Assembly (NCBI GenBank): GCA_964628995.1
Contig: CAZVPA010000003.1
Coordinates: 6,590 to 45,251 of the forward strand
Direction: 5' to 3'
DNA length: 38,662 nt
Source: an uncultured Nitrososphaerota archaeon
Lineage (GTDB): Archaea; Asgardarchaeota; Njordarchaeia; Njordarchaeales; Panguiarchaeaceae
Shown here: piece by piece, positions 482-24,696 of the stretch
How the letters are laid out: each line of letters opens with the position of its first letter
Position numbering within the stretch: the stretch's first letter is position 1
Position numbers and translations under genes: made by a program
The notes under the pieces: generated by a model
Seen by the model: the letters and a program-made list of their open reading frames with translations, nothing else
Databases searched by the model: none
What the model was told of the DNA's origin: nothing

Positions 482-1165
482 TTGTTCCTAATCATATTGG
501 TGGTGTTTGTGAGTCGGCGCCGCGTAGTCCGTAAGAAGATATATCACTGGATACCTGTGTATCCTCCAGAATTTTTGGGGAGAGATCCTATAGTCAAAGT
601 TTTGACAATAGAGCCGAGAGATCTTATTAATAGGATTGTACGCATCAAGGCTATTGGTTATGTTACGAGGTATGAGGATCAGGTCATGGATCTATTGTTT
701 AGAATTGTTAAGGTTACTCCATCTGGTGCCCATTCAATCTTTATTGGACATCAGTATCCTCGGGAGATAATATCCACTATTGTTAGGAGGAGACGTAGTA
801 AGTGTGAAGTGATCACTAGAGTCCGTACTAAGGATAATCAGCAGGTGAAGGTGTCCGTTATAGCGATGACTTTCAGGCGGGCTCATTATCGCCAAAGAAA
901 GGCTATCAGAAGAACGATGCTTGAAATTCTTGAGGAGAGAGCAAAAGAGCTTGAGTCACAGCAGTTTCTTTGGAATCTTGTTATAAGGAAAGCATTCCAT
1001 AGGGAGATCATTAGTGCTTGCCATAAGATATACCCAATAAGGGATTTCCTTGTCTATAAATCATTCAATGAGAGCAGCCTTATCCCTCCAACGGAAATTA
1101 CAAATTACATTGAGGGAGATCCAGCAAAGATTCTGGAGAAAACGGAAACAGTACGGTTAAGGTGA
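482..1165 (+). CDS. rps3ae: 30S ribosomal protein S3Ae (eS1)
   Basis: The family pattern is present: FIGHQYPREIISTIVRRRRSK, VRTKDNQQVKV, RKAIRRTM and a C-terminal HKIYPIRD. The hydrophobic first ~9 codons look spurious. GTG at 509 (VSRRRVVRKK...) is the more likely start. An AT-rich TATA-like sequence lies at about 440-455. Confidence 0.9.
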   Translation: MFLIILVVFVSRRRVVRKKIYHWIPVYPPEFLGRDPIVKVLTIEPRDLINRIVRIKAIGYVTRYEDQVMDLLFRIVKVTPSGAHSIFIGHQYPREIISTIVRRRRSKCEVITRVRTKDNQQVKVSVIAMTFRRAHYRQRKAIRRTMLEILEERAKELESQQFLWNLVIRKAFHREIISACHKIYPIRDFLVYKSFNESSLIPPTEITNYIEGDPAKILEKTETVRLR

Positions 1166-1312
1166 TAGAATACGTCTATCAAGAAGCTCTGGAGTGAGAT
1201 AAAGAAAATCCTTGAACGAGGACGTGGATATAAGCTGGAAAAAATACTAGAGGAGAAAAAGGACTCAATAGAAGCAGTATTTCAGAAGCCTAAAAGAAGA
1301 GTATATGTTTCC

Positions 1313-1801
1313 GTGACATCTAGGAAAATAAGCGTACAGAAGGTCAGAAGAGTAATAGCAAGGATGGAGGAATATGGATGCCATGAGGGGCTTCTTGCCA
1401 CGATAAGAAATGCCACGCCTCAAGCGAGAAAAGAGGCCGAAGCAAATAGAATAGAGATCATCGATTCCAAGCAACCTCTCATATATATTTTCGACCACTG
1501 GCTTGTACCACAACACAGGTTACTAAGCGAGGATGAGGCAAAACAAGTAATTGAAAAATACGCAGGTGGAGATAGGAGTCTAGCAATGAGAATATTCCCA
1601 AAGATATTGACCTCAGATCCAGCAGTAAGGATATTGAAAGCAAAACCAGGACAAATTATTGAGATACGTAGAACTGTGCCATCCATAGAGGAACTCCGAA
1701 AGCACTTCGGTGACCACGCAGCAAAACGAATACATAGGATACTAAAGAGGCTTATCCCCGCGGGAGAGGAAATATATTACCGTATTGTCGTGGAGGGGTA
1801 G
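1313..1801 (+). CDS. rpoH: DNA-directed RNA polymerase subunit H (Rpo5/Rpb5 family); coding homology appears to extend upstream to about 1169
   Basis: The C-terminal part (HWLVPQHRLLSEDEAKQVIEKY...PKILTSDPAVRILKAKPGQIIEIRR...YYRIVV) matches the RpoH/Rpb5 C-terminal domain. The region before it, and the in-frame sequence upstream of the GTG, resemble the eukaryotic Rpb5 N-terminal domain (see findings). Confidence 0.85.
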   Translation: MTSRKISVQKVRRVIARMEEYGCHEGLLATIRNATPQARKEAEANRIEIIDSKQPLIYIFDHWLVPQHRLLSEDEAKQVIEKYAGGDRSLAMRIFPKILTSDPAVRILKAKPGQIIEIRRTVPSIEELRKHFGDHAAKRIHRILKRLIPAGEEIYYRIVVEG

Positions 1802-2078: not shown

Positions 2079-4169
2079 ATGGGACTAAGGGATAAACTAG
2101 CGGAGTTGCTATCATATTTTAAAGTCCCAAGGACACTTATCTGTCGCATTGGGGCCTTGCTTATAATATACGTTGTTGGTCTAGTTCTAAGGCTACAGCC
2201 AATATTGATGTATGGAGCCAATCATAGGGCCTATGACCCATTCATTCAATATAGGGCCACCCAAATATTAATTGAAGAAGGACTACTGGGCATGCTCTCA
2301 TACTACGACTTCAAATATTGGTACCCCTTCGGTTCGTCCACATCAAAACTATATATAATAGTACCATTGGTTGGATACATAATTTATGTGATACTGAACG
2401 CGCTAGGATTTCATGTTGATCTTCTTATGGCGATTACTATTGCCCCAGCCATTCTTGGATCCTTCTGTATAATTGCTGTATATTTCATTGGAAGAGAAAT
2501 AAAAAATGATAATGTTGGACTCATTGCTGCACTTGTTACTGCTGTTGCTCCTGGCTTCTTACAGAGAAGCATTGCTGGGTTCTATGATAATGAGATGAGT
2601 ATTCTATTTATCCTGCTACTACTCCTGTTTTATATAAAGGCCATCAAGACTGGAAGCATTGCATACTCTATTATTAGTGGCTTTTTTGGTGGTATTGTAT
2701 GCTGGAGCTGGGGTATTTGGCGGTACATACTTGCGATATTAGCCATCTATACATTCCTCAGAATGATCGGAGGGAAAATCGACTCAAACGACTCTATAGC
2801 ATATGGAGTAACAATAACACTATCCGTGGCAATGGGCATAATGATTCCCAGGAACTACGGGATAATAACATCGACCATTGTTGCTGTATCAATCGCTGTT
2901 CTATTACTCGTATTCCTGAACTATCTTGCTCTACTTTTTTCAAGAATTTTTGGGAAAACACGCATCCAAATGTTCAAGATATTCTTGGGGATAGGGCTTG
3001 TATGTGTTTCGATAGGACTCCCCGCTCTCTTTATGCTCGGCTACCTGAAAACAATAACAGGAAAATTCGCATCAATCCTTAATCCATTCCTTAGAGAGAA
3101 AGTCGTTACGTATACCAGTGTAGCCGAAAATCAACCTGGCGTCTGGACAAACTTCTATATGGGTGCAGGACTCGGAGTTTTGTTTGTGCCTATCGCTATA
3201 TACGCAATGATTGAGCGTCGACATAAGGTGGACTTATTACTCTTCTTGCTTGTCGTGACATCATTCTATTTTGCTGCTTCAATAACACGGTATATTGTAC
3301 TAGGCTCTCCCCTAATATCATTGGCTGTCGGTTTGGGTGTTGATTATTTAATAGAACCATATGCCAGATTTTTAACCAAACGATACATTTTGCATAAATC
3401 TCGAGTAGTCAGAATATTCCTAGGAGAACGCCGGCCCCCTCGGAATGAGGCCTTTGCTGTTTACGCTATCATATTCCTTGTCTTCCTACTTTCCGTAAAC
3501 CAATGCATAAGCATGGCAAAGTATTATAGTGGCTACGACTATACTACAGCAGAGAGAGAAATTTTCTACTATCTTAACACACATGCTAACCCAAATGATG
3601 TTGTTCTTTCCTGGTGGGACTATGGGTATAGATGTACAGTCATAGCGAATATTTCCACATTAGCTGATAATGGTACAAGAAACTCTACCCAGATGGGTGT
3701 AGTAGGAAGTATGCTAATGTTGCCTCCGCCGAGAGCCATATGGCTTATGAGGAAATATAATGTTAAGTGGGTTTTGGTATATTCTGTGGACCTAGCAAAA
3801 GCTATATGGATGATAAAGATAGCCAGCAAGCATGCACCTATGTATGGAGTACATGAAAAGGATTACCTAAATAAGGAAGAGATGCGATACCGCGAGCCAT
3901 TCTTTCACTCGGTATTATGGCACTTGCTTGCCTATAAGGAAGATACACGAGTTCCTACTTGGGTAGAGAGGTATGGAGAGTCCAAACTTAAAGACAAGGG
4001 AACAGAATTCAAAGTTTCTGATTTAGTATACTTCGAACTTGTAATGAAAAAGACCTATGGTAATGAATTTGTAAAACTATACCGTGTGGTTTGGCCTATT
4101 AACCTCAATGAACAACCTTCCTACGTCCCAGGAATGAATGTAACTAGGATTATTAGTGGAGGGGAATAG
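2079..4169 (+). CDS. aglB: Dolichyl-phosphooligosaccharide-protein glycotransferase AglB (STT3 family oligosaccharyltransferase)
   Basis: It has a multi-span N-terminal membrane domain with the AYDPF and FYDNE acidic motifs. The canonical WWDYGY motif is present (VLSWWDYGYRCT), followed by a soluble C-terminal domain. Confidence 0.92.
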   Translation: MGLRDKLAELLSYFKVPRTLICRIGALLIIYVVGLVLRLQPILMYGANHRAYDPFIQYRATQILIEEGLLGMLSYYDFKYWYPFGSSTSKLYIIVPLVGYIIYVILNALGFHVDLLMAITIAPAILGSFCIIAVYFIGREIKNDNVGLIAALVTAVAPGFLQRSIAGFYDNEMSILFILLLLLFYIKAIKTGSIAYSIISGFFGGIVCWSWGIWRYILAILAIYTFLRMIGGKIDSNDSIAYGVTITLSVAMGIMIPRNYGIITSTIVAVSIAVLLLVFLNYLALLFSRIFGKTRIQMFKIFLGIGLVCVSIGLPALFMLGYLKTITGKFASILNPFLREKVVTYTSVAENQPGVWTNFYMGAGLGVLFVPIAIYAMIERRHKVDLLLFLLVVTSFYFAASITRYIVLGSPLISLAVGLGVDYLIEPYARFLTKRYILHKSRVVRIFLGERRPPRNEAFAVYAIIFLVFLLSVNQCISMAKYYSGYDYTTAEREIFYYLNTHANPNDVVLSWWDYGYRCTVIANISTLADNGTRNSTQMGVVGSMLMLPPPRAIWLMRKYNVKWVLVYSVDLAKAIWMIKIASKHAPMYGVHEKDYLNKEEMRYREPFFHSVLWHLLAYKEDTRVPTWVERYGESKLKDKGTEFKVSDLVYFELVMKKTYGNEFVKLYRVVWPINLNEQPSYVPGMNVTRIISGGE

Positions 4170-4174
4170 CCATA

Positions 4175-4828
4175 ATGAGGCTTAAGAGAATTTTTATCCC
4201 TATTTTTCTACTGATGGTGCTCCTAGCAGCTTATAACCCTTTTATGAAGAACACAGATAGTAATACCTGCACGGACTTAAATATAGAGGTATCAACCTCA
4301 CTAGCTGATCCCACTTTGCATGTTGTTAGTACAGAATACCCCTTTCTATATGTTGGAAAAATCTCCAGTAAACATAGTGCTAAACTTGGTGAATGGATCC
4401 GTATATATATTGTTGTGGGAAACGCTGGAAACGCGACAGCATACAATATCAAGATAGTTGATGCCGATTATCCATCCTGGACTTTTGAGACACTTAACTA
4501 TTCCCGGGAGTACCATATACCTCAGATAGCACCAAACGTGTCTATCACCATATCATATCAGTTGAGAATAATAAATACTCACCAGAAAAATGTTTCGCTC
4601 GGCAGGGTCTTAGTTCAATATGAGGATCGAGATGGAAAGAAGTATGAATCTATATCAGAGGAGCTCATTATAAGTATAAAATTTGAGGCAGAGCTTGATC
4701 TGGATAAAACAAGAAAGATATTTCTCACAAGCATAATGCTTATTACTGCATTACCCTCACTAGGACTTATATGGATTGAAAGAAAAACATTGATGGAATA
4801 CCTGCACCAGAAGAGAGAAAGAAAATAG
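4175..4828 (+). CDS. Type-I membrane protein with a beta-sandwich ectodomain (CARDB/DUF11/TRAP-beta-like)
   Basis: An N-terminal signal/anchor ([15 protein letters not shown]) is followed by a ~150-aa domain containing [21 protein letters not shown] and [11 protein letters not shown]. A C-terminal TM helix ([12 protein letters not shown]) and a short basic tail complete it. The gene starts 5 nt after the aglB stop. Confidence 0.6.
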   Translation: [217 protein letters not shown]

Positions 4829-5334: not shown

Positions 5335-7314
5335 TTATCGACTTCTGAGAGTATCCAGAAAATACCTAATTGGGCTTGTCCTACATATCTTGTCTGCAAC
5401 AAATACCCTTACTGGTTTTCCTGATGAATAATCCAATCTAAGTATGCCCTCTAAACATACCTCTTCTCCAGACAATATACCCTCCACCGCGTCTATATTA
5501 GTATCCGCGGACTCCTTCCCTATAAGGAGCTTTAATGGAACCATAGCCATTATTGTTGAGTATCCATCATCGATTGATAGGGACACAATATTTTTCTCGA
5601 CGACATCACCTTTATGCCCTTGTTCGCAGATTCTCTTTTCGAGATCCACTATAAAACCACCACACCTACCACAAAAATATACTGGCCCTACCCAATCGAC
5701 TCCCGTTACTACCCCCCATATTCTGGCTCTATCACCGATACCCAACCCCCCTATTGGCCTATACGTCACACCACCTTCCAAGATTCCTTCCATCCCCCAG
5801 AAATTGTAATTACCAGTAAGCTCAAGAACCGATGTTTTCCTTGTAGCCATAATTACTAGCCCCTCTCCTCTTCTATCCCGCACTATCTTTACGTTTGTGA
5901 TCTTTACTAGACTTTTTACAGCATCTTCTATCCTGCTAACGAGACCATCATCCCACATTAGAAATTTTATCTCATTCTCTCCATCACTAAGCCATGCTAG
6001 ACCGACTAATTTCTCTCCAGAGACCTTTTGGATCCTCTCTACACGGAGAATAACATCAAAGATTTTACCCTCAGAAAGCTCAGATATCTTATTGGCTAAG
6101 GGCCTCCATCGAGTCTCATATCCTCTAGAAGCTTTTTCGATGAGCTCTACATGCCCCATATTTGGCTGAATATGTACCTCCCATGTACCTCCCCCATATC
6201 TGACCTGTCCGAATACTCCAATTTTATCTCCAATACCAAAATCAGCTACCAGATCCACAATATCCTCATTCCAGACAACCAGCCTTATATCCTCGCCGGT
6301 TTCTATTTCAGCAGTAACAAATAAATATCTATGCCTCGTTGAGTTTTTCGTGTATGTTCCTATACGCGGTCTTGATTTTATTTTTATAATGAATCTCCAC
6401 CAACCATTCTCCTGGATATCTTTTATGTTAACACTTGGGGGAGTTTTCTTTTCTACTGCCGATATGTTTCTCGCAACCACAAATAGTTTTCCATCAGCCT
6501 CTTTCAGGAATGCTCCATGGATTATGATGATATCGCCTATCTTGGGCCGCACTTTCTCGTATTCACCAATAGCCCTGTCCATAAAGCTACATAATACTCT
6601 ATCGCTACAGTAGTTCTTTACGTCTCCTAGAAGAACTCTTAATATCTTGCATTTGCTGAGGCCCTCTTTACGTGTATCAGTGATAACTTTCATCAAAACA
6701 CCACGAACATGATAGTATGTAAACTTCTCTAGGCTAGTTTTTTTCAGGTCCGAGATATCAATAATCCTGATTGGAGGGGGTACACTATCAACAAATTTCC
6801 TTGCGCTTTCATCATCAAGCCTCCTTATGCGACCCTCATTGGAAACTATAGCTTTTAGGATACCACTTCTAAATCTACCACTTATGTTTACATTCTTTAC
6901 CACAACAAGATCTCCTATTTTTAGGCCCTCTAGATCATCCAAAATTGTGTCTATACGGGGGATATAGATTTGAGCCATTGTTGCCCCATCACTGACCAAC
7001 AGTATGGCCCCATATTTTGCCTTCTCATTTTTGTAGGTTTTTATAACATCAACCCTACCAATAATTGTTATCGCTCTCATACCGACCTCTACCTCCGAGA
7101 GCCTCATAACTCTCGAACTGAGTAGAAGCTCCTCAATTATATCTGTGGCCACATCCATAAGCCCTTTTTTTGTGAGAAGCTGTATTATAGCCACAACTTC
7201 ACTTACTCCGTGCTTTCTTTTTATATTATCAATTAGTGTATCAAGTTCACGAGTAGATACTCTGAGAAGCTCACATAGCTTTTGCTTTATTTCAGGTGAT
7301 ATGGTCATAGCCAA
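5335..7314 (-). CDS. Replication protein A-like ssDNA-binding protein (multiple OB folds plus zinc ribbon)
   Basis: The 659-aa protein has repeated OB-like segments (G..V.V.G.V...). A C-terminal CGRCGG-x13-CEQGH zinc motif is embedded in the last OB fold, as in RPA70/archaeal RPA. This is a pattern-level call only. Confidence 0.65.
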   Translation of the reverse strand: MAMTISPEIKQKLCELLRVSTRELDTLIDNIKRKHGVSEVVAIIQLLTKKGLMDVATDIIEELLLSSRVMRLSEVEVGMRAITIIGRVDVIKTYKNEKAKYGAILLVSDGATMAQIYIPRIDTILDDLEGLKIGDLVVVKNVNISGRFRSGILKAIVSNEGRIRRLDDESARKFVDSVPPPIRIIDISDLKKTSLEKFTYYHVRGVLMKVITDTRKEGLSKCKILRVLLGDVKNYCSDRVLCSFMDRAIGEYEKVRPKIGDIIIIHGAFLKEADGKLFVVARNISAVEKKTPPSVNIKDIQENGWWRFIIKIKSRPRIGTYTKNSTRHRYLFVTAEIETGEDIRLVVWNEDIVDLVADFGIGDKIGVFGQVRYGGGTWEVHIQPNMGHVELIEKASRGYETRWRPLANKISELSEGKIFDVILRVERIQKVSGEKLVGLAWLSDGENEIKFLMWDDGLVSRIEDAVKSLVKITNVKIVRDRRGEGLVIMATRKTSVLELTGNYNFWGMEGILEGGVTYRPIGGLGIGDRARIWGVVTGVDWVGPVYFCGRCGGFIVDLEKRICEQGHKGDVVEKNIVSLSIDDGYSTIMAMVPLKLLIGKESADTNIDAVEGILSGEEVCLEGILRLDYSSGKPVRVFVADKICRTSPIRYFLDTLRSR

Positions 7315-7321
7315 AACCTAG

Positions 7322-7951
7322 GTGATCTGGATGGACACCTCGGAAACACTTAGACGCGTTGAGCTTGATATTACATGCCCTGTATGCAAGGTAGGCTCCC
7401 TCACGATGCTTTATAAAACAATATTAATACCCTACATAGGCCAACTTTTGATCTCCACAATAATATGTTTCACCTGTAAATTTAAGATATCAGATATCTG
7501 GATCGTAAGTAACACAGGAAAATATCGCAAAAAATACCAAACAAGCATTACCGAGGACACAATAAATAACCTCGTGTGTGCCAGTGCTGGAGCAAGAATA
7601 ATGGTTCCCGAACTTGGGGCAGAGATAGACATAAGGACATTCGATGGCGCACATATAACAACAGTTGAGGGAATTCTAAGAGAAATCCTAGACGCAATAA
7701 ACATGCTCATGGATACCGCAGAAAACCCAGCAAAAGCTGAGAAACTCAAGGCCATACTGATGAGCGAAATAGAATCACCCTCAGGAAAATTAACCCTAAT
7801 ACTGGAGGATCCACATGGACATAGTACTATAATCCCGTATGAATACTGGGTACAAAGAACTGAAATGGATCGCCAAGCCCAGATAAACCCTAAAGAAATA
7901 GCGAAAAAAATGATAGAAAAGTGGAGAGAAATCGAGAAACCCCCTATGTAG
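7322..7951 (+). CDS. ZPR1-type zinc-finger protein
   Basis: CPVC...(IPYIG)...CFTC is followed by ARIMVPELGAEIDIRTFDGAHITTVEGILREI, which is the ZPR1 zinc finger plus A-domain pattern. ATG at 7331 is an alternative start. Confidence 0.72.
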   Translation: MIWMDTSETLRRVELDITCPVCKVGSLTMLYKTILIPYIGQLLISTIICFTCKFKISDIWIVSNTGKYRKKYQTSITEDTINNLVCASAGARIMVPELGAEIDIRTFDGAHITTVEGILREILDAINMLMDTAENPAKAEKLKAILMSEIESPSGKLTLILEDPHGHSTIIPYEYWVQRTEMDRQAQINPKEIAKKMIEKWREIEKPPM

Positions 7952-20785: not shown

Positions 20786-20868
20786 TGCGGGGGGCGGGAC
20801 TCGAACCCGCGCAGGCATCCGCCACTGGGTCCTCAACCCAGCCCGTTTGACCTCTCCGGAACCCCCGC
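20786..20868 (-). tRNA. tRNA-Leu(GAG), class II with a long variable arm
   Basis: The reverse complement reads GCGGGGG-TT-CCGGAGAGGTCAAACGG-G-CTGGG-TTGAGGA-CCCAG-TGGCGGATGCCTGC-GCGGG-TTCGAGT-CCCGC-CCCCCGC-A. It abuts the stop codon of the convergent wHTH gene. Confidence 0.9.
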
Positions 20869-22254: not shown

Positions 22255-24696
22255 GTGGAAAAGATCTTTAGGAATATATTGGATGATAGCGACCTAGAGG
22301 CATTACTGGGAAGCACCGACATGTATAGACTTCTTAAAATCGAGGAAAAGCTCATGGCTTTAGAGGGGGTTGTTCCTCCGATACGTGATATACTTCCAGT
22401 AATCCATGCGTGCGTGTTTGAAGACGCTAAGTCTAGAAAAAAACTATTGGTTGACTCGATAAAGAGGATGGGGCTTCTTCAGAGGGTATGGAGCCCAAAT
22501 GAGGCTCTAAAGAGGAAAATAGAGGAAACATTTTGGGAGGTTAGGGATATCGGCATTGATAGGGTACTTGGGGGAGTGATTTCTGCGATCCATAGATATT
22601 TGGTAAGTGGGGATGAAAGTGCTATAGACCTAGCAATCATGATGGTTTCGGTTCTTCTCTCGCAAAGTATTGATGAATACGTATGTTCTGGGGTATCTCC
22701 AAGGGAGAATATGGACTCTTTTCTGAGGAAGATGAAGGGCATGTCATTGGCCGATACTGATGGTATGTTGACGCAAGTACTGGATAATATCTATAAGTAT
22801 GTCCCAAAGGAGATCACGGAAGAATTCATAATGTCACTTAGTCTGTTATTTGGCTGGGGGAGGGAAGATATCAATACTAGTAATCTGGTTGGAAAAGCAA
22901 AGGATGATGCCCAGAAGGTAGCGAGGATACTGCTCCTCATAATCATTCTCTCCATAGTAGCTAAACACTACAAAGGTATTCGTCGAGATATGCTGAGTAT
23001 TGAAACAATACGATGGATAATGAGACTATGTATGGCTGCTCGGGGGGATATAAGGATTAAAGCATTAATTGATGCGGTACGCTTCATATGTGTGTCTGGT
23101 AGGGGTGTTGTAAGGATTTGTTTATTGTTACAAAGGCTTATTGAGGTTCATGGAGGCGAAATACTTGTCGAGGTTATGGACAAAGTGATTCCAGCCAATT
23201 TCCTTGGAGACGCCGCAAAAATGCTTGTATTTGTTAACTCGTTGAGGGGGTACATGCCACAGAAAATTATTGCCCAAGCTGTAAGATCCAGTAAGTATGA
23301 GTTGAGGGTTTTAAATATGGCTCTTCTCGAGCAGAAAGTGAGGCCTAGGGGAATAGCATTGGCTATTCCTTGGGAGCTTTATGGGAGGCCTACAGAACTC
23401 CTTAAGGCATGCAAGGAGGCCTTAGATTACTTCAACAACACAGGAGTAAGAGTTCCAACAAGGTTTTTGCTACTTAGGAAATTTCTAGAGCTTGTTCGCC
23501 AGGCAGAGGGAATACACAAAGAAGACATTAAAGGTATGGATATCGAACAGCTAATCGGAATAATACCATTATTTATGAGGCTTAAAAGAATATCGGAAAA
23601 GCTATTTGGGAAGATGAAGAAATTCTACGGGTACGTTCCGGGAATATATAAGATCATGAGGCAGGTAGATACGACCTATGGTTTCTTGGTTAAGAAGTGG
23701 GAGTATATGATCCTGAGTAAGTACAGAGATCTGTTGGATGATAAAGCTGAGCTATTTACGATGAGTATAGGTAGGGAATTCTCAACCACGCGCATGGGCG
23801 AGGCCAGCGTGTTAGTAATAATCGATGGCCTGAGGTATGATGACTTTGTCGTGTCTCTTGTACCGAAGCTTCTGAGGATAGGTTTCAGGAAATTGCTGAT
23901 AAAACCTAAGATATCTCTCTTGCCCTCAATAACAAATATCTCGCGTATGGCGATAATAGAGGGCTGTAGACAAAATGTATTCGCAATAAGTAAAAGGCTA
24001 CGGAGGAAGGAGGAGGACATAATTAAAGGAAAGTATGGAGATATGGAGTTCTACTATGGCCCTCTAGATGTTATTCTAAATAAATTTAGGGCTAAGTCAA
24101 AGCATTCGAGTCGACTAATATTTGTACTGAGTGAACTGGAGAAATCTCTCCACGGGGCATCAGAGGCCATGTTAGTGCATTTTGTTGAGGAGTATCTGGA
24201 CAGGATTGTTGAGTTATTGATGTATGTGGCATCCAGACTTGCGCAGAATTTTGATACTGTACGTATTCTTATATGTTCTGATCACGGTCTAGGCGTGTTC
24301 TTTAAGTATGTTGATATTGATGGTTTCGTAGAGGAACTTAGGAGAAGAAGACTGATTGATGGGGGTCTAGAACCCACAATAAAGGCACGCTATGCGCTCA
24401 TTCCACTGAGAAGTTCCACTGATTTTCTTGGTGTTGAGAATATATATCGGAATACTGAGGAATATAGACGTGAGTTCTGGTTAATAAGGGCAGATGAATT
24501 GGGTTTTGAGAGTATAGAGTTTAGGAGGATAGGGAGCGAGTTATTGACGGGAGTGAAGAGGGCTGACTCCGTCATCATTCTGTTTCCGAAAGGTAACACG
24601 AAGTTTATCAGGGGGCGGGGGGCAGTTTTTCATGGAGGCATAACACCAGAGGAAATGATTAGCGTCTTCGGCGTCTTCGAGTTTTCTTTTTCGTAG
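22255..24696 (+). CDS. PglZ-domain (alkaline-phosphatase superfamily) protein with a ~500-aa helical N-terminal region
   Basis: The C-terminal ~300 aa carries the PglZ signature set: VLVIIDGLRYDD (metal Asp), LLPSITNISRMAIIEG (nucleophile Thr), ILICSDHGLG and AVFHGGITPEEMISVF. The N-terminus has no motif I recognise. Confidence 0.75.
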   Translation: MEKIFRNILDDSDLEALLGSTDMYRLLKIEEKLMALEGVVPPIRDILPVIHACVFEDAKSRKKLLVDSIKRMGLLQRVWSPNEALKRKIEETFWEVRDIGIDRVLGGVISAIHRYLVSGDESAIDLAIMMVSVLLSQSIDEYVCSGVSPRENMDSFLRKMKGMSLADTDGMLTQVLDNIYKYVPKEITEEFIMSLSLLFGWGREDINTSNLVGKAKDDAQKVARILLLIIILSIVAKHYKGIRRDMLSIETIRWIMRLCMAARGDIRIKALIDAVRFICVSGRGVVRICLLLQRLIEVHGGEILVEVMDKVIPANFLGDAAKMLVFVNSLRGYMPQKIIAQAVRSSKYELRVLNMALLEQKVRPRGIALAIPWELYGRPTELLKACKEALDYFNNTGVRVPTRFLLLRKFLELVRQAEGIHKEDIKGMDIEQLIGIIPLFMRLKRISEKLFGKMKKFYGYVPGIYKIMRQVDTTYGFLVKKWEYMILSKYRDLLDDKAELFTMSIGREFSTTRMGEASVLVIIDGLRYDDFVVSLVPKLLRIGFRKLLIKPKISLLPSITNISRMAIIEGCRQNVFAISKRLRRKEEDIIKGKYGDMEFYYGPLDVILNKFRAKSKHSSRLIFVLSELEKSLHGASEAMLVHFVEEYLDRIVELLMYVASRLAQNFDTVRILICSDHGLGVFFKYVDIDGFVEELRRRRLIDGGLEPTIKARYALIPLRSSTDFLGVENIYRNTEEYRREFWLIRADELGFESIEFRRIGSELLTGVKRADSVIILFPKGNTKFIRGRGAVFHGGITPEEMISVFGVFEFSFS

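Follow-up and report, generated by a model that had tools for sequence, protein, structure and literature searches.

How is a subunit of RNA polymerase made from a gene whose reading frame has no conventional start codon for its first 48 codons? The question is raised by rpoH (rpo5), the gene for subunit H, in a stretch of 38,662 nucleotides from an uncultured Nitrososphaerota archaeon (the window; contig CAZVPA010000003.1 of assembly GCA_964628995.1, positions 6,590 to 45,251, placed by GTDB in the Njordarchaeales). The frame is open from position 1169 to the TAG at 1799–1801 (210 codons), and GTG 1313 is its first in-frame ATG, GTG or TTG, just as an earlier note on this DNA had claimed; the translation given in that note is also correct. 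Its list of in-frame near-cognate codons (ACG 1172, ATC 1178, ATA 1199 and CTG 1235) is accurate as far as it goes, but incomplete, as ATC 1208, ATA 1244, ATA 1268 and six AAG codons belong to it too. GTG 1313 (1313–1315, + strand) was picked by gene callers in three other assemblies of the same population, leading to a product of 162 residues (P0003), because ACG is not an allowed start for such programs. By itself, a startless run of 48 codons is unremarkable: other open frames in the window show 20 to 90 startless codons. The coding status of 1169–1312 is therefore decided by homology and selection. The analysis identifies a two-domain, Rpb5-like subunit of 209 codons plus TAG (1172–1801, + strand), supported by homologues of 209–212 residues, AlphaFold2 (AF2) models and Foldseek searches, and suggests that it is probably translated from ACG 1172.

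A two-domain subunit homologous to Rpb5

The carboxy-terminal domain (1487–1798, + strand) was assigned with Pfam, phmmer and Foldseek. Rpb5_C (PF01191), one of two Pfam domains that the earlier note had expected in the translation, matches residues 107–174 with 62.3 bits against a cut-off of 23.5 (E 3.6e-17, hmmscan), and phmmer aligns Pyrococcus Rpo5 with an E-value of 2.8e-14. Because the Rpb5_C match is well above threshold, the protein belongs to the RpoH/Rpb5 family, although not to its classical short form. The NCBIfam equivalog model for archaeal subunit H, NF007129, reaches 58.6 bits, below its cut-off of 83, because of an insertion in the carboxy-terminal domain and the presence of an extra amino-terminal one. 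The insertion, of about 28 residues (1676–1762, + strand; AF2 and family alignment), is located before the last strand of Rpb5_C and consists of two helices (residues 173–180 and 182–195) with a predicted local distance difference test score (pLDDT) of 86–90. At this point, between IEI[KR]R..P and YYR[IV]VVE, the alignment with Pyrococcus Rpo5 is interrupted. All sequences of the family alignment, which are of the Njordarchaeota type, contain the insertion, and in other Asgard long forms and in classical RpoH, the matches end before it (near profile position 168–175).

The amino-terminal domain (1172–1480, + strand; Pfam, hhalign, AF2 and Foldseek) is predicted to have a compact restriction-endonuclease (REase) fold, with its elements in the order alpha-beta-beta-beta-alpha-beta-alpha-beta. 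The AF2 model of this domain alone has a pLDDT of 95.6 and contains helices at residues 3–17, 55–67 and 83–91 and strands at residues 21–28, 32–39, 42–49, 72–77 and 94–98; the called start, GTG 1313, falls inside strand beta3. When the 210-residue translation was searched with hmmscan, no match to RNA_pol_Rpb5_N (PF03871), the other domain expected by the earlier note, was found at E <= 1. Instead, residues 17–101 match Mrr_cat (PF04471; E 6e-11, 42.8 bits against a gathering score of 21), and NA-iREase1 (PF22722), a family of inactive REases, is also matched (E 8e-8, 32.7 bits against 27). In Foldseek, the domain alone retrieves Rpb5 chains with E-values of 3e-4 to 1e-2 over 60–78 columns, interleaved with EndoMS, MspJI, EcoT38I and AF1548, which align over 100–110 columns with similar E-values. 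As modelled, the fold of this domain is the minimal PD-(D/E)XK fold and is by itself not diagnostic of Rpb5.

The Pfam assignments and the longer alignments to EndoMS, MspJI and EcoT38I would both suit a separate event in this lineage, in which an Mrr-like nuclease domain was fused to RpoH; the amino-terminal domain would then be analogous, not orthologous, to the eukaryotic jaw. We regard such an origin as improbable. The order of the domains and the junction to Rpb5_C are the same as in Rpb5, and the Njordarchaeotal domain alone can be aligned with hhalign to the amino-terminal domains of eukaryotic and viral Rpb5 end to end (query 6–103, template 11–132 of 134), with a probability of 97.9%, an E-value of 4.1e-13 and 97 columns. 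In this alignment, the motif blocks that the earlier note had named for human and yeast Rpb5 are in register: LW...RGY, K-[IV]-[SG]-V...RM.E (the VGV..R block), TP.A[KR] and H.LVP.H. The eukaryotic insertion of roughly 20 residues after the RGY helix appears as a gap in the Njordarchaeotal sequences. Other Asgard long forms bridge both groups; the Njordarchaeotal domain aligns to the amino-terminal domains of other archaeal long forms with 98.65% (E 5e-16), and other Asgard long forms align to the eukaryotic ones with 98.7% (E 2e-16). Finally, a phmmer search of the PDB sequences aligns residues 42–169 to residues 69–196 of plant, fission-yeast, budding-yeast and human Rpb5 (E 1e-9 to 1e-6), in alignments that run from the amino-terminal domain into the carboxy-terminal one.

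The full-length AF2 model, calculated from 19 homologues, has a pLDDT of 87.8 and combines the REase-like domain with an RpoH-like carboxy-terminal domain. When it is compared to the PDB with Foldseek, ranks 1–36 are all Rpb5-type chains, 34 of them eukaryotic and two of the Rpb5 homologue of African swine fever virus (ASFV) RNA polymerase, with E-values of 1e-11 to 1e-6, 143–240 aligned columns and template modelling (TM) scores of 0.43–0.61. These are followed by archaeal subunit H (TM 0.8–0.85 on the target) and then by restriction enzymes. Rpb5 chains thus come first for the full-length model, while the amino-terminal domain alone does not single out Rpb5; its fold is shared with Rpb5 but not specific to it. 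The protein is a two-domain RpoH, homologous to eukaryotic Rpb5 over its whole length; this homology and architecture are established, and we read the protein as an orthologue of Rpb5 whose jaw domain lacks the insertion and looks ancestral. The label "full-length eukaryote-type Rpb5" in the earlier note is right for the architecture, which is collinear with that of Rpb5, but too strong for the details, given the missing PF03871 match, the missing eukaryotic insertion and an amino-terminal fold that is not specific for Rpb5.

In the family alignment, the invariant columns of the amino-terminal domain are L7, W8, K13, I14, R19, L23, A36, F38, V47, S55, V56, A77, T78 and A86, and the nearly invariant ones include E16 (helix 1) and E68 (helix 2). 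None of the invariant or nearly invariant columns in strands beta2 and beta3, which read DSIEAVFQ and RRVYVSV in the window, is an acidic residue or a lysine that could belong to a catalytic D...(D/E)XK motif, the motif positions being mapped by secondary structure and not by residue-level superposition. A nuclease role for the domain is very unlikely, because these strands lack conserved catalytic residues and the domain is fused to an RNA polymerase subunit.

Proposed initiation at the rps3ae–rpoH junction

Purifying selection acts on the 46 codons that precede the called GTG (1175–1312, + strand). Between the window and its nearest relative (locus L001), they contain 21 synonymous and 4 non-synonymous differences, which gives a proportion of synonymous differences (pS) of 0.72, a proportion of non-synonymous differences (pN) of 0.037 and a pN/pS of 0.05. 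The other 162 codons contain 86.5 synonymous and 23.5 non-synonymous differences (pS 0.81, pN 0.062). Raw pN and pS were used, as the synonymous sites are saturated for Jukes-Cantor-corrected dN/dS. Because the synonymous sites are near saturation (pS 0.72–0.81), the two lineages, and with them the ACG that they share, must be old, and the startless segment has been kept as protein over essentially all that divergence time. The Mrr_cat match points in the same direction: with 1169–1312 included, profile positions 18–109 are covered (E 6e-11), and without it only positions 59–109 (E 5e-8). As only the later half of the profile is matched once the segment is dropped, 1169–1312 encodes the earlier half of a genuine domain. 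The segment is contained in all of the roughly 20 homologues; judged by homology, conservation among homologues and purifying selection, it is real coding sequence.

The start codon was sought in alignments of the rps3ae–rpoH junction, or of the region upstream of rpoH, from about 20 distinct relatives. These orthologous loci, to which the earlier note had pointed, have an ATG aligned with ACG 1172 (1172–1174, + strand), the proposed initiation codon; the one exception is a TTG a codon earlier. The aligned ATG is preceded by GGTG or AGGT 6–9 nucleotides upstream, and the codons after ACG 1172 are Ser-Ile, fitting the family amino-terminus M-S-[IVL]. ACG occupies the start position in two lineages only, the window population and its nearest relative (L001, L002 and L015, with 89% amino acid identity). 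The junction of the relative (AGGTGAAAAAAACG) reads AGG-TGA-AAAAA-ACG and that of the window (AGGTGATAGAATACG) reads AGG-TGA-TAGAAT-ACG, which is one base longer. In the relative, the GTG in GGTGA is in frame and is the called start (M-K-K-T-S-I-K-K-L-W). The orthologous GTG of the window (1162–1164, + strand), which likewise overlaps the rps3ae TGA as GTGA, is one base out of the rpoH frame, and its own frame ends at TGA 1195–1197. This GTG arose when TAG became TGA, and the clade in which this happened, formed by these two lineages, is exactly the one in which ATG was replaced by ACG.

A sequencing or assembly error, one of the options of the earlier note, would mean that the true sequence has an ATG at 1172 or lacks T1171. 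The contig is derived from a metagenome, and single-base problems occur in such assemblies. However, the junction is identical in four assemblies (the window, JGI Ga0190367_1005848, ENA ERZ27248328 k141_386149 and Logan SRR7051321_132550), although the other three differ from the window by 1–4 substitutions elsewhere, its context ATAGAATACG is not homopolymeric, and the ACG of the sister lineage was found independently in three other assemblies. The replacement of ATG by ACG and the reproducibility of the sequence are hence well established, and an assembly artefact was rejected as very unlikely.

Recoding, also named in the earlier note, could take the form of a +1 frameshift after a start at GTG 1162 or of readthrough into an S3Ae–RpoH fusion. 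GTG 1162 is one base off the rpoH frame and, as the earlier note had observed, rps3ae and rpoH share one frame in the window. The shared frame is not kept in relatives, where the spacer after the stop has 5, 7 or more nucleotides (lengths that are not multiples of three) or the genes overlap. Readthrough is further opposed by two consecutive stops (1163–1168, + strand), the TGA at 1163–1165 that closes rps3ae and an in-frame TAG at 1166–1168. For the frameshift, inspection of the sequence between 1168 and TGA 1195 revealed neither a slippery site nor a stimulatory stop; P-site tRNAs on GAA, TAC, GTC, TAT, CAA and the other codons cannot re-pair in the +1 frame. Both forms were rejected, and recoding is hardly credible as an explanation.

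The putative ribosome-binding site is AGGTGAT (1160–1166, + strand), which overlaps the rps3ae stop, matches the archaeal Shine-Dalgarno (SD) consensus over seven bases and places its GGTG at -11 from ACG 1172. Among the long open reading frames surveyed in the window, about 15 of 34 have a GGTG at -10 to -12 from their likely start, including genes in which the ATG overlaps the preceding stop, and -11 is the modal spacing. AGGTGAT occurs eight times on the two strands of the window, and two of the other copies are located 11 nucleotides before ATG 7331 and ATG 26313. At a GGTG frequency of 0.0025 per nucleotide, the chance of finding one at the three offsets is about 0.008. In L001, the GGTG is at -10 from the ACG, and the called GTG lies inside the SD without having one of its own, unlike the ATGA-overlap starts of the window, which do possess their own SD.

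The same geometry bears on the remaining in-frame near-cognate codons. Initiation at ATC 1178, ATA 1199, ATC 1208, CTG 1235 or others would give a slightly shorter amino-terminus, and ATC 1178 is only two codons after the ACG. From ATC 1178 onwards, however, the GGTG is at least 17 nucleotides upstream, beyond the range of -10 to -12 typical of this genome. Starts at or past 1199 would delete the invariant L7-W8 of helix 1, and none of these codons aligns with the family start. An origin of the protein at one of them is therefore quite improbable.

We put at about even the chance that 1172–1801 is an intact, functional rpoH with SD-directed, termination-coupled initiation at ACG. Of the options considered in the earlier note, non-canonical initiation with coupling to rps3ae fits best, with an ACG that is aligned to the ATG of relatives and an SD at -11. 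In the encoded subunit of 209 residues, an inactivated Mrr-type REase-fold domain, homologous to the Rpb5 jaw, is fused to the universal RpoH/Rpb5_C, and the ancestral ATG has changed to ACG in the window lineage and its nearest sister. In the proposed course of events, the gene would be co-transcribed with rps3ae. Ribosomes ending rps3ae, or 30S subunits recruited de novo, would be held by AGGTGAT (1160–1166), which would bring ACG 1172 into the P site with the spacing usual for the genome, and the initiator tRNA would start on the near-cognate ACG to give Met-Ser-Ile-Lys-Lys-Leu-Trp and so on. Translation of the long rpoH from ACG is probable because, apart from its start, the gene shows no defect and evolves under purifying selection; both the full-length and the amino-terminal models have high pLDDT values. 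Whatever the ancestral route, the full protein can be obtained from the present gene only by a non-canonical start. The spacer from the SD to the ACG has diverged between the two lineages both in sequence and in length (AAAAAA in L001, ATAGAAT in the window), as non-coding DNA would be expected to do; the next 46 codons have a pN/pS of 0.05. From the shared ACG, the divergence of the spacer, the position of the extra base, the absence of other damage and the fixation of the allele in several assemblies, we infer that ACG is used for initiation, with an efficiency that is likewise a matter of inference.

The main rival is a recent loss of the start, the "decapitated" domain of the earlier note, which we judge unlikely. 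According to this explanation, the start had earlier moved to the GTG over the rps3ae TGA, leaving the ACG as a mere threonine codon, and a one-base insertion in the window lineage then put this GTG out of frame. The amino-terminal domain would be untranslated or made in traces, the cell would subsist on leaky initiation or on the 162 residues translated from GTG 1313, and there would have been too little time for the segment to decay. The junctions lend themselves to such a history: L001, L002 and L015 have GTG-AAA-AAA-ACG in frame where the window has GTG-ATA-GAA-T-ACG, the appearance of the GTG coincides with the loss of the ATG, and stop-start overlaps of four nucleotides are common in the window. 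A truncated product could also keep the core function, since classical archaeal RpoH is the carboxy-terminal domain alone. Against it, there is no other lesion and the segment is intact, with its low pN/pS (a very recent event is still compatible with this value). Four assemblies, which show 1–4 single nucleotide polymorphisms elsewhere, all have this allele as their consensus. The insertion falls precisely in the six-nucleotide spacer between GTG and ACG, for which we calculate a chance of about 1% for a random frameshift in 630 nucleotides. No SD-like motif was found upstream of GTG 1313, and the aligned codon in relatives varies (GTA, CTA, TTA, CTT, GTC, ACG, ATA, GCA and so on); GTG 1313 was therefore rejected as a conserved internal start. 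Starting there, half a REase fold would precede the carboxy-terminal domain and would probably misfold, to judge by the AF2 models.

Several points weigh against initiation at ACG. A review gives AUG, GUG and UUG as the archaeal start codons and, for ACG in a yeast context, quotes a level of about 0.5% relative to AUG (PMC4705826). In the nearest relative, a perfectly good in-frame GTG is available where stop and start overlap as GTGA, and overlaps of four nucleotides are common in this genome; dependence on ACG may thus never have existed in the ancestor. That both lineages have the ACG is weak evidence, given a third-position identity of about 0.59 in this region. The four assemblies may come from the same or related samples, and the pN/pS spans the whole path between the lineages, leaving room for a very recent loss in that of the window.

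Distribution and comparison with known systems

The family to which the protein belongs consists of about 20 proteins of 209–212 residues from metagenome-assembled genomes (MAGs) of Njordarchaeota. Genome records that contain relatives, among them public MAGs with near-identical members (loci L005–L013), are mostly labelled Candidatus Njordarchaeota, others Promethearchaeati, uncultured Nitrososphaerota or Crenarchaeota archaeon, a mixture that echoes the published dispute over the placement of the Njordarchaeales. A profile search of 1.8 billion representatives yielded 2066 relatives. Among 126 long relatives, Rpb5_C is present in all, Rpb5_N of the eukaryotic or viral type in 51 and Mrr_cat in 46. 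Mrr_cat-type subunit H proteins of 177–190 residues are found in Hodarchaeales (MHA2499950.1), Thorarchaeota (MFW9914868.1), Helarchaeota (MHA1310242.1) and Heimdallarchaeota (MCG3217569.1). The long form is the rule in Njordarchaeota and widespread in Asgard archaea, and not peculiar to the window. In some relatives of the long RpoH, the two-domain module is located at the carboxy-terminal end of a much longer chain (P0025, 436 residues; P0047, 481; P0056, 378; P0033, 293; P0066, 250), with up to three matched stretches each; these are possibly larger fusions or proteins with duplicated amino-terminal domains.

The architecture is already visible in public annotation, as precomputed PF01191 and PF04471 matches, in proteins annotated simply as subunit H. 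In the full-text literature of the one library searched, no report of a long Asgard Rpb5 (Rpb5, Rpo5 or RpoH with Asgard, Njordarchaeota or restriction-endonuclease) or of an archaeal ACG start was found, and we know of no documented archaeal ACG start. A census of PD-(D/E)XK proteins gives the Rpb5 amino-terminal domain as present in Eukaryota only (PMC3424549), and a 2014 paper describes archaeal RpoH as lacking any amino-terminal extension (PMC3906176).

Compared to eukaryotic Rpb5 (RPABC1; PF03871 and PF01191), which is shared by Pol I, II and III, the window protein has its two domains in the same order and is of comparable size (209 versus about 210–215 residues), and Rpb5 chains, with the ASFV homologues, are the best PDB matches of its full model. 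The carboxy-terminal domains are clearly homologous, the amino-terminal ones are homologous over their full length by profile–profile comparison, and both of the latter are REase-fold domains without a conserved catalytic motif. The differences are that the window protein has no PF03871 match, lacks the roughly 20 residues inserted after the RGY helix and adds the roughly 28-residue, two-helix insertion in the carboxy-terminal domain; sequence identity is only about 20%. Classical archaeal RpoH (Rpo5; NF007129, about 75–85 residues) has the orthologous carboxy-terminal domain but no amino-terminal one. Its gene forms an rpoH–rpoB–rpoA cluster in non-Asgard archaea (PMC10833476), while the gene in the window lies between rps3ae and spt4. 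The long proteins annotated as DNA-directed RNA polymerase subunit H in other Asgard archaea have the same REase-fold and Rpb5_C architecture, with about 25–30% identity to the window clade in the amino-terminal domain, and do not contain its carboxy-terminal insertion. With the Mrr-type PD-(D/E)XK nucleases and their inactive derivatives (PF04471 and PF22722), which score above the gathering thresholds, the window family has the alpha-beta-beta-beta-alpha-beta core in common; it differs in having no conserved acidic residue or lysine in strands beta2 and beta3 and in being fused to a polymerase subunit.

Start codons other than AUG, GUG and UUG are used elsewhere, for example AUU in E. coli infC and ACG in eukaryotic and viral genes. 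As in these cases, rpoH combines a strong signal for positioning the ribosome with a near-cognate codon where relatives have their conserved start, although here the use of ACG is deduced from comparative sequence data. If ACG does initiate, the archaeal start-codon repertoire would be widened. Taken together, the two parts of a larger proposal, that ACG is a genuine, retained archaeal start for an RNA polymerase subunit in two near-saturated lineages and that the Rpb5 jaw arose in Asgard archaea by fusion of an inactivated Mrr domain to RpoH before eukaryogenesis, can be put forward only tentatively. If true, comparative evidence would for the first time point to eukaryote-style initiation at a near-cognate ACG in Archaea, and the ACG could possibly throttle synthesis of subunit H relative to the co-transcribed ribosomal protein. 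The eukaryotic Rpb5 amino-terminal domain contacts downstream DNA and several transcription factors. A homologous domain across Njordarchaeota and Heimdall-, Hod-, Thor- and Helarchaeota would shift the origin of full Rpb5 into Asgard archaea, and the Asgard form offers a simpler, insertion-free jaw domain for study. The called 162-residue product also serves as a warning that conserved domains can go missing when Asgard MAGs, on which studies of eukaryogenesis draw, are annotated.

Neighbouring genes and other features of the window

The upstream operon gene, rps3ae, encodes ribosomal protein S3Ae/eS1 (482–1165, + strand; Pfam Ribosomal_S3Ae, E 3e-36; NCBIfam PRK04057, E 6e-40), and its carboxy-terminus, ...VRLR*, is conserved in relatives. 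Its longest open reading frame starts at TTG 482 and opens with a hydrophobic stretch unlike the family (482–520). Family matches begin only at residues 16–22, and the true start is probably GTG 509, which has a GGTG at -10. Upstream of rps3ae, near 441–452, a TATA-like ATATAAATAAT is present; by eye, no convincing TATA box was seen at about -27 upstream of 1172 or 1313. The downstream operon gene is spt4 (rpoE''; 1802–2041, + strand; Pfam Spt4, E 2e-10; NCBIfam NF041664, E 4e-15). Two starts are conceivable: GTG 1802, directly after the rpoH stop (TAG 1799–1801), and TTG 1811, which has a GGTG at -10 and is the start in the JGI and ENA calls (76 residues). The genes rps3ae, rpoH and spt4 look like members of one tightly coupled operon, and a tblastn search of the window revealed no second Rpb5_C/rpoH copy in it. 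In the distant half of the family (about 50% identity; L009, L011 and L025–L034), rpoH is not preceded by rps3ae and has its own AT-rich upstream region and GGTG SD; the coupling of rps3ae to rpoH is therefore specific to the subclade of the window.

Further downstream, an STT3/AglB oligosaccharyltransferase (696 residues) is immediately followed by a homologue of eukaryotic translocon-associated protein beta (Pfam TRAP_beta, E 3e-11; both within 2079–4828), a eukaryote-like pairing that is consistent with an Asgard origin of the window. A 659-residue, RPA-like oligonucleotide/oligosaccharide-binding (OB)-fold protein (5335–7314, - strand) has a weak tRNA_anti-codon OB match only. A ZPR1 jelly-roll domain protein is encoded at 7322–7951 (+ strand). 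An 813-residue protein (22255–24696, + strand) has a sub-threshold PglZ match (24.1 bits against a cut-off of 25). Three tRNA genes were called on the minus strand: tRNA-Arg-GCG (354–429), tRNA-Leu-GAG (20786–20868) and tRNA-Lys-UUU (90–183), the last of which is 94 nucleotides long, suggesting that it carries an intron.

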